Assembly (NCBI RefSeq): GCF_054482595.1
Contig: NZ_CM137008.1
Length of the DNA stretch: 64,000 bases
Strand: one strand, 5' to 3'
The notes under the pieces are model-generated. The model made no database searches, was not told the DNA's origin, and was given only the letters and a program-made list of their open reading frames with translations. A program made the translations under genes and the position numbers. This document shows positions 136 to 33,777 of the stretch, piece by piece (within the stretch, counting starts at the first letter, position 1; each line of letters begins with the position of its first letter).

Positions 136-220
136 AGCTTGTTAATAAAGTGCGCTTTGTGTGTTTCGGCTGAGGCGTAATATAAAATCTTGCGAGCTCA
201 ATATATTAAAAGAGTGCCAG

Positions 221-245
221 GCCTGATGAGCGTATCGCATCAGGC
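221..245. repeat. REP-like palindromic hairpin between gcvP and the 3' end of bglA
   Basis: gcctgatg-agcgtatcg-catcaggc: perfect 8-bp inverted repeat immediately downstream of the bglA stop. Confidence 0.5.
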
Positions 246-256
246 ACATCGGCTAA

Positions 257-2869: not shown

Positions 2870-2883
2870 TGGGTATGCCTTTG

Positions 2884-2940
2884 TAGGCCTGATAAGACGC
2901 GCCAGCGTCGCATCAGGCGATAAATGCCTGATGCGACACA
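2884..2940. repeat. REP (repetitive extragenic palindrome) element
   Basis: gcctgataagacgcgccagcgtcgcatcaggc followed by a second gcctgatgcgac unit, typical enterobacterial REP sequence between convergent genes. Confidence 0.7.
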
Positions 2941-6416: not shown

Positions 6417-7127
6417 ATGAAGAAAGGTTTTATGTTGTTTACTTTGTTAGCGGCGTTTTCAGGCTTTGCTCAGGCTGATGACGCGGCAATTCAACAAACG
6501 TTAGCCAAAATGGGCATCAAAAGCAGCGATATTCAGCCCGCGCCCGTAGCTGGCATGAAGACAGTTCTGACTAACAGCGGTGTGTTGTACATCACCGATG
6601 ATGGTAAACATATCATTCAGGGGCCAATGTATGACGTTAGCGGCACGGCTCCGGTCAATGTCACCAATAAGATGCTGTTAAAGCAGTTGAATGCGCTTGA
6701 AAAAGAGATGATCGTTTATAAAGCGCCGCAGGAAAAACACGTCATCACCGTGTTTACTGATATTACCTGTGGTTACTGCCACAAACTGCATGAGCAAATG
6801 GCAGACTACAACGCGCTGGGGATCACCGTGCGTTATCTTGCTTTCCCGCGCCAGGGGCTGGATAGCGATGCTGAGAAAGAAATGAAAGCTATCTGGTGTG
6901 CGAAAGACAAAAACAAAGCGTTTGATGATGTGATGGCAGGTAAAAGCGTCGCACCAGCCAGCTGCGACGTGGATATTGCCGACCATTACGCACTTGGCGT
7001 CCAGCTTGGCGTTAGCGGTACTCCGGCAGTTGTGCTGAGCAATGGCACACTTGTTCCGGGTTACCAGCCGCCGAAAGACATGAAAGAATTCCTCGACGAA
7101 CACCAAAAAATGACCAGCGGTAAATAA
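6417..7127 (+). CDS. dsbC: Thiol:disulfide interchange protein DsbC
   Basis: 236-aa ORF with signal peptide and CGYC active site (TDITCGYCHKL). Confidence 0.95.
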   Translation: MKKGFMLFTLLAAFSGFAQADDAAIQQTLAKMGIKSSDIQPAPVAGMKTVLTNSGVLYITDDGKHIIQGPMYDVSGTAPVNVTNKMLLKQLNALEKEMIVYKAPQEKHVITVFTDITCGYCHKLHEQMADYNALGITVRYLAFPRQGLDSDAEKEMKAIWCAKDKNKAFDDVMAGKSVAPASCDVDIADHYALGVQLGVSGTPAVVLSNGTLVPGYQPPKDMKEFLDEHQKMTSGK

Positions 7128-30998: not shown

Positions 30999-32624
30999 AT
31001 GAATATTTTCACAGAGGCTGCAAAACTCGAAGAGCAAAATTGTCCGTTTGCGATGGCGCAAATTGTTGATAGCCGAGGCTCGACTCCCCGCCATTCTGCA
31101 CAAATGTTAGTGCGCGCCGATGGTTCTATCGTCGGTACAATTGGTGGCGGAATGGTTGAGCGGAAGGTGATTGAAGAGTCGCTTCAGGCATTGCAGGAAC
31201 GTAAGCCGCGATTATTCCATGGACGTATGGCTCGTAACGGTGCGGATGCTGTCGGGTCAGATTGTGGAGGTGCAATGTCAGTATTTATCAGCGTCCATGG
31301 TATGCGTCCACGTCTGGTGTTGATTGGCGCGGGGCATGTCAACCGGGCGATAGCCCAGAGTGCGGCGCTATTAGGATTTGATATTGCCGTTGCCGATATT
31401 TATCGCGAAAGCCTCAATCCTGAACTATTCCCACCATCAACCACGCTTCTCCATGCTGAGTCGTTTGGTGCGGCAGTGGAAGCACTGGATATTCGCCCTG
31501 ATAATTTTGTCCTGATTGCCACGAATAATCAGGATCGTGAAGCCCTCGACAAACTCATTGAACAGCCCATTGCATGGTTGGGGTTGCTGGCAAGTCGTCG
31601 CAAGGTTCAGCTTTTCCTGCGTCAATTGCGTGAGAAAGGCGTGGCTGAAGAACATATTGCCCGTTTACATGCGCCCGTTGGTTACAACATAGGTGCGGAA
31701 ACGCCGCAGGAGATCGCCATCAGCGTGCTGGCAGAAATATTACAGGTGAAAAATAACGCGCCGGGTGGGCTGATGATGAAACCTTCTCATCCTTCCGGAC
31801 ACCAGCTGGTGGTGATTCGCGGGGCGGGAGATATCGCCAGTGGTGTGGCGCTACGTCTGTATCATGCGGGTTTTAAAGTGATCATGCTGGAAGTGGAAAA
31901 ACCGACAGTGATTCGTTGTACCGTGGCGTTTGCCCAGGCCGTGTTCGATGGCGAAATGACGGTCGAAGGCGTCACTGCTCGCCTGGCAACCAGCTCTGCG
32001 GAAGCGATGAAACTTACCGAACGCGGATTCATCCCTGTGATGGTAGATCCCGCCTGTTCATTGCTTGATGAACTGAAACCGCTTTGCGTGGTGGACGCTA
32101 TTCTGGCGAAACAGAATTTGGGAACGCGGGCAGATATGGCACCAGTAACAATCGCGCTTGGGCCGGGCTTTACTGCTGGGAAGGATTGTCATGCGGTAAT
32201 TGAAACAAATCGCGGGCACTGGCTCGGTCAGGTGATTTACTCTGGTTGTGCGCAGGAGAATACCGGTGTTCCTGGCAATATTATGGGGCATACCACCCGA
32301 CGGGTGATCCGTGCTCCTGCTGCAGGCATTATGCGATCCAACGTGAAATTAGGCGATCTGGTGAAAGAGGGCGATGTGATTGCCTGGATTGGTGAGCATG
32401 AAATTAAAGCACCGTTGACGGGGATGGTGCGTGGCTTGTTGAACGACGGACTGGCAGTGGTCGGTGGTTTTAAAATTGGTGATATCGATCCTCGTGGTGA
32501 AACGGCTGATTTCACCAGCGTTTCTGATAAAGCCCGGGCGATTGGCGGCGGCGTACTTGAAGCGTTAATGATGTTGATGCATCAGGGCGTGAAAGCGACA
32601 AAAGAAGTGCTGGAAGTGGCTTAA
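30999..32624 (+). CDS. yqeB: XdhC/CoxI-family molybdo-enzyme maturation protein, YqeB
   Basis: 541-aa ORF; K-12 synteny. Confidence 0.85.
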   Translation: MNIFTEAAKLEEQNCPFAMAQIVDSRGSTPRHSAQMLVRADGSIVGTIGGGMVERKVIEESLQALQERKPRLFHGRMARNGADAVGSDCGGAMSVFISVHGMRPRLVLIGAGHVNRAIAQSAALLGFDIAVADIYRESLNPELFPPSTTLLHAESFGAAVEALDIRPDNFVLIATNNQDREALDKLIEQPIAWLGLLASRRKVQLFLRQLREKGVAEEHIARLHAPVGYNIGAETPQEIAISVLAEILQVKNNAPGGLMMKPSHPSGHQLVVIRGAGDIASGVALRLYHAGFKVIMLEVEKPTVIRCTVAFAQAVFDGEMTVEGVTARLATSSAEAMKLTERGFIPVMVDPACSLLDELKPLCVVDAILAKQNLGTRADMAPVTIALGPGFTAGKDCHAVIETNRGHWLGQVIYSGCAQENTGVPGNIMGHTTRRVIRAPAAGIMRSNVKLGDLVKEGDVIAWIGEHEIKAPLTGMVRGLLNDGLAVVGGFKIGDIDPRGETADFTSVSDKARAIGGGVLEALMMLMHQGVKATKEVLEVA

Positions 32625-32632
32625 ATGAAAAT

Positions 32633-32839
32633 GGCCGGATGGTATTACCCACCCGGCCTGAGACTGATGACAAACGCCAAATTGCCTGATGCGCTACGCT
32701 TATCAGGCCTACAAGTGCATTGCAATCTATTGAATTTGCGATGTTTTGTAGGGCGGATAAGGCGCTCGCGCCGCATCCGGCATCAACAAAGCGCACTTAC
32801 TTGACAATCTTTGGCCGGATGGTATTACCCACCCGGCCT
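32633..32839. repeat. BIME / REP cluster with two copies of a 27-bp palindromic unit
   Basis: ggccggatggtattacccacccggcct at 32633-32659 and 32813-32839 (direct repeat), flanking canonical REP units gcctgatgcgctacgcttatcaggcctaca and tgtagggcggataaggcgctcgcgccgcatccggca. Confidence 0.8.
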
Positions 32840-32844
32840 TTAAA

Positions 32845-33777
32845 TTACTGACAAATCACCGTTCCTGTTTTGCCTTCAATCCCTTCTTTCGCTTTGCTCA
32901 ATACGGTAATTAGTGCTTCACGACCTGCACGAGAGCGAGCAAACGAGGCGGCAGCTTCCACTTTAGGCAGCATAGAACCTTTCGCAAAATGACCTTCTTC
33001 GATAAAGCGTTCAGCATCACTTAATGACAGGCGATCGAGCCACTGTTCATTCTCTTTACCGAAGTTAATGGCCACTTTTTCTACCGCAGTCAGAATGATC
33101 AGCATATCGGCATCAATCATTTCTGCTAAACGGGCGCTGGCCCAGTCTTTATCGATAACCGCACTGGCACCACGCAGGTGGTTACCTTCACGAATAACAG
33201 GGATACCACCACCGCCAACGGTAATCACTACCTGGCCTGCTTCTACCAACGCTTTGACCGTTTCTTTTTCAATGATATCAACCGGTTTTGGCGAGGCAAC
33301 AACACGGCGATAGCCGCGACCAGCATCTTCTTTCAGAGTGTAACCCTGTTTTGTCAGTTGCTCTGCTTCTTGCTCGGTAAAGAACGAACCGATCGGCTTG
33401 GTCGGGTTGAGGAATGCCGGGTCGTTAGCATCGACTTCGACCTGGGTAACCAGCGTTGCTACAGGTTTATTAATGCCACGAGAAAGCAGTTCTTCTCTTA
33501 ATGCGTTTTGTAGATCGTAACCAATATAACCCTGGCTTAAGGCAACACAGACAGACATCGGCAGCATTGGCGAGTGTGCTTCAGTTTTTGCGGCAGCTTC
33601 AAAGGCCTGGTTAATCATGCCCACCTGTGGCCCGTTACCGTGAGTGACGATGACCTCATGTCCCTGGGCAATTAAATCAACAATTGCCTGAGAAGTAATT
33701 TTTACCGCTTTCATTTGCCCGGCCAGATCATCGCCCAGCGCATTCCCGCCCAGGGCGAGAACAATTTTCTTACTCAT
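32845..33777 (-). CDS. yqeA: Carbamate kinase-like protein
   Basis: 310-aa ORF MSKKIVLALGGNAL...; amino-acid kinase family N-terminus. Confidence 0.9.
   Translation of the reverse strand: MSKKIVLALGGNALGDDLAGQMKAVKITSQAIVDLIAQGHEVIVTHGNGPQVGMINQAFEAAAKTEAHSPMLPMSVCVALSQGYIGYDLQNALREELLSRGINKPVATLVTQVEVDANDPAFLNPTKPIGSFFTEQEAEQLTKQGYTLKEDAGRGYRRVVASPKPVDIIEKETVKALVEAGQVVITVGGGGIPVIREGNHLRGASAVIDKDWASARLAEMIDADMLIILTAVEKVAINFGKENEQWLDRLSLSDAERFIEEGHFAKGSMLPKVEAAASFARSRAGREALITVLSKAKEGIEGKTGTVICQ

Follow-up and report, generated by a model that had tools for sequence, protein, structure and literature searches.

A BIME-1 element between yqeB and arcC is flanked by two copies of a terminator-like hairpin that is single in empty alleles

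The spacer between the convergent genes yqeB and arcC/yqeA probably records the insertion of a BIME-1 element at a terminator-like hairpin shared by the two genes, in an event that duplicated the whole hairpin and in which the DNA breaks may have been directed by the structure of the target. The locus lies within the window, a stretch of 64,000 nucleotides of contig NZ_CM137008.1 (assembly GCF_054482595.1).

The yqeB-arcC spacer contains a direct repeat of a terminator-like hairpin

A reading of the window from sequence alone had described a 220-bp intergenic region between convergent genes, and both the open reading frame list and the annotation of matching RefSeq genomes agree with this for the filled allele. 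The same reading reported two exact copies of a 27-bp palindrome bracketing REP units. We found the exact direct repeat to be slightly longer, 28 nt (TGGCCGGATGGTATTACCCACCCGGCCT), with copies at 32632-32659 and 32812-32839 that are 180 nt apart from start to start and have 152 bp between them. The features of the region are as follows.

30999..32624, + strand: yqeB CDS, 541 aa, stop codon TAA at 32622-32624 (ORF list; named in RefSeq genomes matching the window at 99-100%)
32622..32631, − strand: U-rich tract ATTTTCATTT, after the left hairpin in the arcC direction (terminator scan and sequence)
32632..32659: left 28-bp copy, stem-loop at 32633-32658 (repeat search, folding, base-level comparison of empty and filled alleles)
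32660..32682, + strand: left arm GAGACTGATGACAAACGCCAAAT, forming an imperfect terminal inverted repeat together with the right arm (paralog ends, consensus termini)
32684..32712, + strand: presumed Z1-type PU GCCTGATGCGCTACGCTTATCAGGCCTAC, iREP orientation, ending in CTAC (sequence)
32713..32747: L linker, 35 nt (IHF-consensus match inside)
32748..32781, + strand: Y-type PU GTAGGGCGGATAAGGCGCTCGCGCCGCATCCGGC, GTAG-first (REP) orientation (sequence)
32782..32811, + strand: right arm ATCAACAAAGCGCACTTACTTGACAATCTT (paralog comparison, consensus termini)
32812..32839: right 28-bp copy (repeat search, comparison of empty and filled alleles, genome counts)
32845..33777, − strand: arcC/yqeA CDS, 310 aa, carbamate kinase-like (ORF list, RefSeq annotation, Pfam AA_kinase on homologs)

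The 27-mer has two matches in the window, even when up to three mismatches are allowed, and none in 100 shuffled sequences. Each 28-nt copy folds into a 10-pair stem with a 6-nt loop, and the stem contains an A.C mismatch when read on the + strand and a G.U pair when read on the − strand. The RNA dG is −16.7 kcal/mol for the + strand and −22.6 kcal/mol for the − strand. The loops and mismatches have the same orientation in both copies, so the repeats are direct and not inverted.

A consensus-based terminator scan made a single call, the left hairpin together with ATTTTCATTT on the − strand. The right copy with TTTAAATTA on the + strand is a weaker candidate that was not called; its stem contains the A.C mismatch and its U-tract is weak (TTTAAATT). 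A GC-rich stem-loop followed by a U-rich tract is the layout of an intrinsic terminator, and we predict that the hairpin is active as one. The left copy retains the A-run on its upstream side, which makes up the U-tract of arcC-sense transcripts, and on the + strand it runs into GAGACTG of the BIME, without a U-tract for yqeB. The T-rich tract on the downstream side (32839-32847) has stayed with the right copy; it makes up the U-tract of yqeB-sense transcripts and is overlapped by the arcC/yqeA stop codon (32845-32847). On the − strand the right copy runs into AAAGATTGTC, without a U-tract for arcC. Since the copy proximal to each gene lacks a U-tract and the distal copy has both hairpin and U-tract, termination is predicted at the far copy, and the proximal copy would be at most a stabilising hairpin. 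The sequence-only reading had assigned a stabilising or terminating role to the copy that abuts each gene; the palindrome is indeed terminator-like, but the abutting copy is cut off from the U-tract of that gene. In the curated K-12 record NC_000913.3 the spacer (3012394-3012613) carries no annotated feature.

Empty alleles carry one hairpin and lack the BIME

A search of 5,426 complete E. coli genomes identified the 27-mer hairpin at 6,814 places in 5,166 genomes, with at most two per genome and none in any of the 5,426 genomes at a place other than the yqeB-arcC locus. The hairpin is present as one copy in 3,518 genomes (empty alleles) and as two copies in 1,648 (filled alleles). The empty allele has a 40-bp spacer with one terminator-like hairpin that is flanked by both the A-run and the T-rich run, and the U-rich tract at 32622..32631 is the same in empty alleles, where it adjoins the single hairpin. 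Compared base by base, the filled allele is the empty allele with exactly 180 bp (152 + 28) added. The ancestral spacer shows the layout of a predicted bidirectional intrinsic terminator common to two convergent genes.

In a spread sample, 15 of the 16 entries that are 100% identical to the LC-1302 query were filled, and K-12 shares this flank type. Nearly all other sampled flank types were empty, including the O157/O55 entries, O111 and ST131, and UTI89 carries the empty allele. The closest outgroup compared, a Citrobacter-type contig on which both genes show 88% nucleotide identity, carries a single homologous hairpin in a spacer of 38 nt, and Trabulsiella and Pseudocitrobacter also have one hairpin. 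Because a single hairpin is found both in the empty alleles and in the Citrobacter-type outgroup, we read the 28-bp repeat as a target-site duplication made by the insertion of BIME-1 into a one-hairpin spacer. Filled alleles are found on two or more flank types that differ by about 1%, so the history of the locus has been blurred by recombination or by precise excision at a later stage. One empty allele shares its flanks with the common K-12-type filled allele at 100% identity over 721 bp.

The insert is a 152-bp BIME-1 unit with fixed ends

The sequence between the two 28-nt copies is a 152-bp BIME-1 composed of a Z1 PU, an L linker, an inverted Y PU, and inverted-repeat arms. The BIME that had been noted between yqeB and yqeA from the sequence alone is therefore confirmed, with its two canonical PUs (Z1 and inverted Y) inside these 152 bp. 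We take the short PU at 32684-32712 to be of the Z1 type from PU consensus sequences. As in other BIME-1, the Z1 and Y PUs are in inverse orientation with GTAG/CTAC feet, and these feet pair with each other (inverted repeat I1). The long L linker is kept in paralogs and contains a putative IHF site, a consensus match on the − strand (ATTCAATAGATTG, 32723-32735) with one mismatch to WATCAANNNNTTR. At this locus the BIME-1 is a single unit, lying between the stop codons of yqeB and arcC.

Paralogs align to the insert at positions 1-151 or 2-152 with 82-89% identity, indicating that the insert is a discrete unit, and the consensus termini of 20 clean copies are GAGACTGATGACAAACGC...GCGCACTTTGTCAGCAATCTG. 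The insert ends GAGACTGATGACAAAC and CAGATTGCTGACAAAG (the latter is the reverse complement of the right end) are identical at about 12 of 16 positions, a similarity that extends into the PUs, and the fixed ends of the unit lie beyond the PUs by about 23 and 30 nt. As a whole, the unit is a long quasi-palindrome with a dG of about −50 kcal/mol. The open reading frames that overlap the 220-bp spacer (43-94 aa) are mechanical calls, one of which (59 aa) covers the first 145 bp of the insert. The recurrence of the 152-bp unit in non-coding spacers at unrelated loci indicates that it has no coding capacity. Rfam returned only sub-threshold matches for the spacer, to REP-derived families: ES036 (36.3 bits, gathering threshold 37.6; 32705-32747, − strand, covering the L linker and the last part of Z1) and naRNA4 (26.6 bits, gathering threshold 59.5; overlapping the Y PU).

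The hairpin duplication recurs at unrelated loci

The motif ATCCGGCANNAACAAAGCGCAC retrieved 117 copies of the 152-bp BIME-1 unit in other genomes. After deduplication and end-anchoring, the flanks were compared at 63 independent loci from Escherichia and Pseudocitrobacter. A flank-to-flank direct repeat scoring at least 10 was found at 24/63 loci, as compared to 0.56% of 5,000 mismatched-flank controls, for which abutment was not required. At 22/63 loci the repeat abuts both unit ends within 2 nt, and these repeats are locus-specific and 16-30 nt long. Of these 22 repeats, 21 are whole hairpins that reach to within 2 nt of both repeat ends (8% for random flank segments), and 9 of the 20 clean repeats are perfect. 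The flanking hairpins at the other loci are unrelated, locus-specific sequences, and the arrangement of A-run-hairpin plus hairpin-T-run is preserved in nearly every case. The occurrence of hairpin duplication at many unrelated loci and in other genera indicates that it is a property of how BIME-1 inserts.

Empty alleles with a single terminator hairpin also exist at uspB-pitA and aspC-gloC. The two copies at aspC-gloC differ from each other, and at all of these differences the empty allele, including that of O157 and ST131-like strains, agrees with the left copy. A full hairpin duplication is absent from 11 of the 28 units with both ends intact (∼40%), some of which have a repeat of only 3-7 nt or none; either decay of the footprint or a second insertion mode would account for these units. 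At glpD, examined for a class of short duplications, the shorter E. coli alleles are a non-homologous replacement haplotype with another downstream gene and terminator and not an empty site.

Alternative explanations

The sequence-only reading took the 27-mer for an additional BIME/REP palindromic unit, which would make this a four-hairpin BIME whose outer units stabilise or terminate the adjacent gene. The outer stem does resemble that of a Y PU (GCCGGATG at the left, (C/T)CCGGCCT at the right), each copy folds into a stable hairpin, and a role as bidirectional terminators or decay blocks has been suggested for REPs located between convergent genes. This explanation is nevertheless almost certainly wrong, since REPs and PUs are dispersed in high copy number and the 27-mer is confined to one locus across 5,426 genomes. 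The reading had itself named, as the result that would count against it, a 27-mer unique to this locus with no structure-dependent 3' ends, and the first half of this is what the genome-wide count returned. In addition, the hairpin is followed by TGAG (left) or TTTA (right) and preceded by AAAT or CTTT, with no CTAC/GTAG foot; it occurs as a single copy without a BIME in 3,518 genomes and in the Citrobacter-type outgroup; the hairpins that flank the unit elsewhere are locus-specific and unrelated in sequence; and the copy adjoining each gene has no U-tract for that gene. It is also very improbable that the two-hairpin state is ancestral, for example as an older tandem duplication of the terminator, with the one-hairpin alleles derived from it by slippage or recombination. 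Direct repeats of 28 bp that are spaced 180 bp apart and enclose a palindrome are well suited to RecA-independent deletion, the empty allele with 721 bp of flanks identical to a filled allele is what such a deletion would leave, and excisions of a whole BIME-1 have reportedly been observed. Against this origin, empty alleles are found on all diverged flank types and filled alleles almost entirely on one, the outgroup has a single homologous hairpin in its 38-nt spacer, and the aspC-gloC empty allele follows the left copy at all differences although the copies have diverged. A deletion origin would also leave unexplained the 22 unrelated loci with the same architecture and unit ends fixed within 2 nt. 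Occasional secondary excision at yqeB-arcC is likely, though the outgroup opposes deletion as the origin of the empty state.

A further alternative is that insertion has no preference for hairpins and involves no cut measured by structure, and that only those insertions that rebuild a terminator on both sides are tolerated. The loss of a shared terminator is probably costly, the A-run-hairpin and hairpin-T-run arrangement is nearly always preserved, and some intact units have a 3-7 nt repeat or none, all in keeping with selection among survivors. We consider it unlikely, as selection cannot create a duplication and some mechanism must copy 16-30 bp. Random stagger followed by selection would also place variable extra flank within the repeat, whereas the boundaries lie at the hairpin feet within 2 nt in 21/22 cases, whatever the hairpin length. 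Selection favouring insertions with intact terminators could, on the other hand, sharpen the hairpin-duplication pattern. Equally doubtful is template switching or break repair, in which the nascent strand of a fork stalled at the hairpin would switch to an ectopic BIME-1 as its template and, after returning, copy the hairpin a second time. Hairpins and palindromes stall forks and favour switching, the BIME-1 is itself a long quasi-palindrome of the stability given above, and the known enzyme, TnpA_REP, yields no duplications in vitro. This route needs microhomology at both junctions, but the target hairpins are unrelated to the unit ends, and copy-choice would leave ragged ends, whereas the unit ends are the same within 2 nt at independent loci.

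A possible mechanism of insertion

In the account that we favour, insertion of BIME-1 at the hairpin, an ancestral spacer of ∼40 bp with one GC-rich hairpin between an A-run and a T-rich run received the 152-bp BIME-1, and 28 bp, the hairpin together with the single bases next to its two feet, were duplicated so that a copy lies on each flank. Extrusion of the target hairpin may have produced a cruciform or, where a replication fork or an R-loop was present, hairpins in single-stranded DNA, and the strands would then have been broken at opposite feet of the hairpin. Such breaks would be equivalent to a linear staggered cut in which the stagger is the hairpin length. Joining of BIME-1 to both ends and fill-in of the single-stranded hairpin overhangs would yield the order hairpin-element-hairpin.

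A candidate for the cutting enzyme is the REP-associated Y1 transposase TnpA_REP, with the target 3'-OH attacking the 5'-phosphotyrosine end, a geometry that would fit; that of a host junction- or hairpin-cutting enzyme would fit as well. TnpA_REP cutting is known only for single-stranded DNA at C|T, and target duplication is unreported for TnpA_REP and the related IS200/IS605 elements. The cutting step is one that we infer, and neither the polarity of the stagger nor the enzyme can be read from sequence. We propose tentatively that BIME-1 is a recently active mobile element that targets extruded terminator hairpins and breaks them symmetrically at their feet, so that the length of the duplication (16-30 bp) is set by the target structure and not by the enzyme.

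In filled strains the yqeB and arcC transcripts would read through the proximal hairpin and BIME-1 and end ∼180 nt further on, and a difference of this size is predicted between filled and empty strains in the 3' UTRs of both neighbouring genes. Termination would be kept in both directions, a possible reason for the tolerance of such insertions. Precise loss of the element could in turn be mediated by the 28-bp repeats.

Relation to known elements

BIME-1 consists of Z1 + L + Y, and the L linker with its IHF site is the defining feature (Ton-Hoang 2012). The insert resembles the described BIME-1 (RIB/RIP) in having one Z1 and one Y in inverse orientation and a long L linker with an IHF consensus, and in being single-copy at its locus, extragenic, and at the 3' ends of transcription units. 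The accessible descriptions define the element by its PUs and linker and are silent on flanking duplications or a hairpin target, whereas we observe fixed unit ends, terminal inverted repeats and duplication of a whole target hairpin. BIME-1 elements are strongly polymorphic among strains, with 71% of their cumulated length in strain-specific loops (Chiapello 2005).

REPINs (RAYT/TnpA_REP) are similar in that the mobile unit is a non-autonomous pair of inverted REPs and the candidate for mobilising it is one domesticated Y1 HUH enzyme. REPINs have also been seen in tandem clusters that take in flanking sequence. The 16-30 bp duplication sets the present elements apart, as do targets that share structure and not sequence. 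By analogy with IS200/IS605 elements, the two PUs of the insert may correspond to subterminal hairpins of the type that TnpA_REP binds in vitro. IS200/IS605 elements insert 3' of a specific short target and make no duplication; the duplication is 28 bp here and 16-30 bp at the other loci.

As in the MITEs Correia, ERIC/IRU and RUP, the insert is ∼150 bp long and non-coding, has terminal inverted repeats, and folds into a long hairpin. Some MITEs also contain an IHF site, and flanking target duplications and presence/absence polymorphism are common to both. The MITE duplications are short and of a length fixed by the transposase, typically 2-9 bp, whereas those of BIME-1 are 16-30 bp and correspond to the target hairpin. 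Bacterial group IIC introns have their insertion sites directly downstream of intrinsic terminator stems, and IS1397 inserts into PU loops. These introns, IS1397/ISKpn1 and the IS110-family ISPpu9/10 likewise use extragenic stem-loops as safe insertion sites, but each codes for an enzyme of its own and is not known to duplicate the whole hairpin.

The empty-site hairpin has the elements of a bidirectional intrinsic terminator, namely an A-run, a T-rich run and a GC-rich stem of 10 bp in a 40-bp spacer between convergent stops. The filled allele differs in that this terminator is split into two copies 180 bp apart, each predicted to be half-functional. A recent preprint places 78 REPs within 306 predicted bidirectional terminators, and it gives the terminator role to the REPs themselves and not to duplicated native hairpins.

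Implications

REP/BIME repeats make up ∼1% of the E. coli genome. Reviews describe them as being without transposon-like signatures, and their dissemination is still called unresolved (Corneloup 2021). The footprint described here is a reproducible before/after difference that recurs across loci, species and genera, and it makes the spread of these repeats testable. It defines the mobile unit (∼152 bp with inverted-repeat arms) and the target class (intrinsic-terminator hairpins), and it constrains the cutting geometry in a way that canonical IS200/IS605 transposition does not satisfy. If BIME-1 does target structure, this would be the first clear insertion signature for REP/BIME, repeats whose spread has posed a question since the 1980s, and it would explain the build-up of repeats between convergent genes without loss of termination. 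For annotation, hairpins beside BIMEs would often be duplicated native terminators, one half-disabled in each direction.

The literature accessible to us yielded no description of a flanking hairpin duplication at BIME-1; if the primary BIME-1 papers of the 1990s already describe it, our contribution is systematic confirmation only. Nor did we find, in the literature searched, a described transposon family with a hairpin-length duplication footprint. CT is present in both ends of the unit (GAGAC|TG and CAATC|TG), and the duplication boundaries do not lie at a conserved C|T.

BIME-1 lies between two copies of a locus-specific hairpin

The yqeB and arcC/yqeA ORFs are convergent, as first read from the sequence and as borne out by the RefSeq annotation of genomes 99-100% identical to the window. 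Between them lies an exact direct repeat (TGGCCGGATGGTATTACCCACCCGGCCT) whose true length, 28 nt, exceeds the 27 nt first reported by one base. The two copies, 180 nt apart from start to start, enclose a 152-bp insert.

Features of the yqeB-arcC spacer and its flanking genes
30999-32624, + strand: yqeB, ORF
32632-32659: left copy of the 28-nt repeat
32660-32811: insert between the two hairpin copies, 152 bp
Left arm of the insert, 23 nt: GAGACTGATGACAAACGCCAAAT
32684-32712: short Z-type palindromic unit (PU), ending in CTAC
Between the two PUs: linker, 35 nt
32723-32735, - strand: putative IHF site in the linker, ATTCAATAGATTG, one mismatch to the consensus
32748-32781: inverted Y PU, beginning GTAG
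Right arm of the insert, 30 nt
32812-32839: right copy of the 28-nt repeat
32845-33777, - strand: arcC/yqeA, ORF

We assign the short PU to type Z1 on the basis of the PU consensus sequences. The insert is a member of BIME-1, defined as Z1 + L + Y (Ton-Hoang 2012). When 5,426 complete E. coli genomes were searched with the 152 bp, full-length paralogs turned up elsewhere, aligning from query position 1 to 151 or from 2 to 152 with 82-89% identity. This marks the insert as a discrete repeated unit, bounded at both ends by the inner edges of the 28-nt repeat. The BIME-1 unit has a median length of 152 bp and imperfect terminal inverted repeats (GAGACTGATGACAAACGC...GCGCACTTTGTCAGCAATCTG), and the window copy has this canonical geometry. 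There is no second copy of the full unit in the 64-kb window; its Z-type PU is matched briefly at 219-246 (- strand, 93% over 28 nt) and 2875-2896 (- strand, 91% over 22 nt), so further REP sequences are present. A near-threshold Rfam match to the ES036/CssrF sRNA (32705-32747, - strand; 36.3 bits, gathering score 37.6) runs from the end of Z1 through the L linker, and that family model thus appears to be REP/BIME-derived. The curated K-12 MG1655 record (NC_000913.3, 3012394-3012613) lists no repeat or other feature in the 220-bp spacer, which holds a complete BIME-1.

Each 28-nt copy forms a stem of 10 pairs with a 6-nt loop, one stem position being an A.C mismatch on the + strand and a G.U pair on the - strand (predicted RNA energies -16.7 and -22.6 kcal/mol, respectively). 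Being palindromic, the two copies are also predicted to be able to pair with each other within a full-length transcript. The 27-mer occurs only twice in the window with up to three mismatches allowed (0 matches in 100 shuffles). A blastn census of the 5,426 genomes (11-base words, 40-nt query centred on the hairpin) found it in 5,166 genomes at 6,814 places, with two copies in 1,648 genomes (31.9%), one in 3,518 and never more than two, and with no copy outside the yqeB-arcC locus in any genome. The hairpin also lacks the GTAG/CTAC foot typical of REPs. The sequence-only reading, sound in its observation and partly right in its interpretation, had taken the 27-mer for a PU of the BIME family; as a sequence unique to one locus rather than dispersed, it is rejected as such, and the BIME between yqeB and yqeA is the insert alone. 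The outer stem of the window hairpin (32633-32658, GCCGGATG...ATCCGGCCT) is identical to that of Y-type PUs.

The filled allele is derived from a single-hairpin allele

Many genomes have exactly 721 bp where the window has 901 bp. In UTI89, STEC434 and LC-1302 this empty allele, which lacks the unit, has a 40-bp spacer with a single hairpin (...TAAATGAAAA-TGGCCGG...CCGGCCT-TTAAATTA...), set between an A-run and a T-rich run. The hairpin lies between two stop codons and has the layout of a bidirectional intrinsic terminator. Base-level comparison showed that the filled allele of the window and K-12 MG1655 is the empty sequence plus exactly 180 bp, namely the 152-bp unit and a second copy of the 28-mer.

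To assign polarity we used a spread sample drawn from the 5,167 genomes having the locus. Fifteen of 16 rows 100% identical to the LC-1302 query, a flank type common to K-12, are filled, and nearly all other flank types are empty, including O157/O55 (99.6-99.7% identity), O111 (99.3%) and ST131 (98.2%). UTI89 is empty as well. An outgroup contig, whose YqeA is identical to a Citrobacter murliniae / C. freundii-complex protein, matches the window at 88% identity in each of the two genes; its spacer, 38 nt long, contains a single homologous hairpin (GGCCGGATGacatcgCATCCGGCC then TTTGAATTAC) and no BIME. Trabulsiella and Pseudocitrobacter likewise have a short spacer and one hairpin, of non-homologous sequence. 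From the empty alleles on most flank types and the single-hairpin outgroups, the single hairpin is ancestral and the filled allele derived, and the 28-nt repeat is a target-site duplication. The perfect-stem variant CATCCGGCC is common to UTI89 (L001) and the Citrobacter-type outgroup (L128), and the window/K-12 variant with the A.C mismatch, CACCCGGCC, present in both duplication copies, is by this comparison derived. The filled state is found in at least two flank types, which differ by about 1%: the window matches strain XH990 at 100% identity and K-12 at 99.0%. One empty allele has flanks 100% identical to the K-12 type over 721 bp. The history of the locus probably also includes recombination, or a later, precise excision across the 28-bp repeats.

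In an enterobacterial lineage represented by Logan contigs about 80% identical to the window genes (L119-L121), the orthologous spacer (about 103 nt) is occupied by another REP pair (CTTATCGGACCTAC...GTAGGCCCGATAAG) flanked by similar short GC palindromes (TCGCCGGCGGG and TCGCCAGCGGCGA), which may be the same kind of footprint from another REP family.

Duplicated hairpins flank BIME-1 at other loci

Among five paralogous E. coli loci, a locus-specific hairpin flanks the unit on both sides at three (uspB-pitA, mog-satP and aspC-gloC) and on one side at glpD, and entD-fepA has no flanking hairpin on either side. At uspB-pitA, the filled allele occurs in 1,940 genomes, and the remaining ones are shorter by 173 bp and have a predicted single terminator (cataaaaaaAGCGGGCCAGTAAACTGACCCGCTCgttttgg); filled alleles have the hairpin on both sides, the right copy having since lost 3 nt. 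At aspC-gloC, the unit is present in 2,811 genomes, and the remainder are shorter by about 172 bp (aatgAAGCCCGCTGAAAAGCGGGCTtttttatg); the left copy in filled alleles is identical to the empty-allele hairpin and the right copy has diverged. At the level of sequence, these two loci provide independent before-and-after proof of hairpin duplication. The region downstream of glpD exists in E. coli as two non-homologous haplotypes, one with BIME-1 adjoining the hairpin AGGTCAGATTTCAATCTGACCT (L010) and the other differing in both its downstream gene and its terminator, GCCCGGTTGCGAAGTGCAACCGGGC (L126/L127).

Scanning a genome collection for the right-end motif of the unit (ATCCGGCANNAACAAAGCGCAC) yielded 117 matches in 102 stretches; the source genomes are E. 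albertii, E. whittamii, Escherichia sp. E1V33, other Escherichia and, in three cases, Pseudocitrobacter. An exact match to the motif on a 262-bp contig of the Firmicute Desulfosporosinus sp. OT (L035, NZ_AGAF01000060.1) is most likely contaminating enterobacterial DNA. Removal of tandem copies and clustering of orthologs left 63 independent loci. A flank-to-flank direct repeat scoring at least 10 was found at 24 of the 63 (38%), as compared to 0.56% of 5,000 mismatched-flank controls; 22 of the 24 repeats (16-30 nt, median 22) adjoin both unit ends within 2 nt, and 21 of these 22 are hairpins reaching to within 2 nt of both repeat ends (8% for random flank segments). The pattern is present at 17 of 28 loci with both unit ends intact, and a unit end is truncated or diverged in 28 of the 39 negative loci. 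Nine of 20 clean duplications, from several species, are perfect, which indicates recent events. The repeats are direct rather than inverted, loops and stem mismatches having the same orientation in both copies, and usually an A-run precedes the left copy and a T-run follows the right.

Predicted effect on transcripts and mechanism of insertion

Each copy had been thought to serve its adjacent gene. This assignment is corrected by the position of the U-tracts, which for each gene follow the distal copy. In the yqeB direction the proximal hairpin is followed by GAGACUG, without a U-tract, and the distal one by UUUAAAUUA; in the arcC direction the proximal hairpin is followed by AAAGAUUGUC and the distal one by AUUUUCAUUU, the only site called by a terminator scan. 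From these distal U-tracts, the 3' UTR of each mRNA is predicted to be longer by about 180 nt and to include BIME-1, with termination kept in both directions.

Together the loci show the insertion of a fixed 152-bp unit at predicted intrinsic-terminator hairpins, which are duplicated in full. We infer the mechanism from sequence alone. Duplication length tracks hairpin length, and the duplicated segments end at the feet of the hairpin. In the simplest geometry, therefore, an extruded hairpin or cruciform would be broken at one foot on one strand and at the other foot on the opposite strand, giving in linear sequence a stagger equal to the hairpin length, after which the element would be joined and the gaps filled. 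A 3'-overhang stagger would suit HUH chemistry of the kind used by the REP-associated transposase TnpA_REP, in which a target 3'-OH attacks the 5'-phosphotyrosine end, and a 5'-overhang stagger could arise from resolvase-type cruciform cutting; both chemistries fit the geometry, and sequence does not tell them apart. The canonical IS200/IS605 pathway makes no duplication (Ton-Hoang 2012), so by itself it does not account for the footprint.

As far as we found, the accessible literature does not describe target duplications of hairpin length beside BIMEs. An earlier description, from the 1990s, is possible, since Bachellier reportedly described "excisions of a whole BIME-1" in 1997. Ton-Hoang 2012 uses neither "duplication" nor "direct repeat", no flanking hairpin duplication is described in Nunvar 2010, Corneloup 2021, Chiapello 2005, Touzain 2010, Bertels & Rainey 2011 or a 2026 preprint on REP function, and REPs are said to "not display MITE signatures" (Delihas 2011). 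The element itself was known; what seems new, or has at least gone unappreciated, is that it has defined ends, a hairpin target and a duplication sized by structure. A BIME in a spacer is ordinary, and following this one through yields a reproducible footprint of insertion, relevant to a question that has long been open.

Some intact units differ in their flanks. One in Pseudocitrobacter faecalis (L024) lies between exact 7-bp direct repeats, ATAGCAT, that form no hairpin, and five others (L053, L055, L061, L068, L100) have a hairpin on one side and just a 3-5 nt repeat on the other, which hints at a second, short-stagger outcome where the target is not extruded. Descriptions of BIME-1 usually give one copy per locus. 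We observed tandem arrays of local hairpin plus unit, with up to six copies, on an Escherichia contig (L101; six matches, 160-nt period) and at L110, L112, L114, L086 and L017, as expected if duplicated hairpins are substrates for unequal exchange or slippage.
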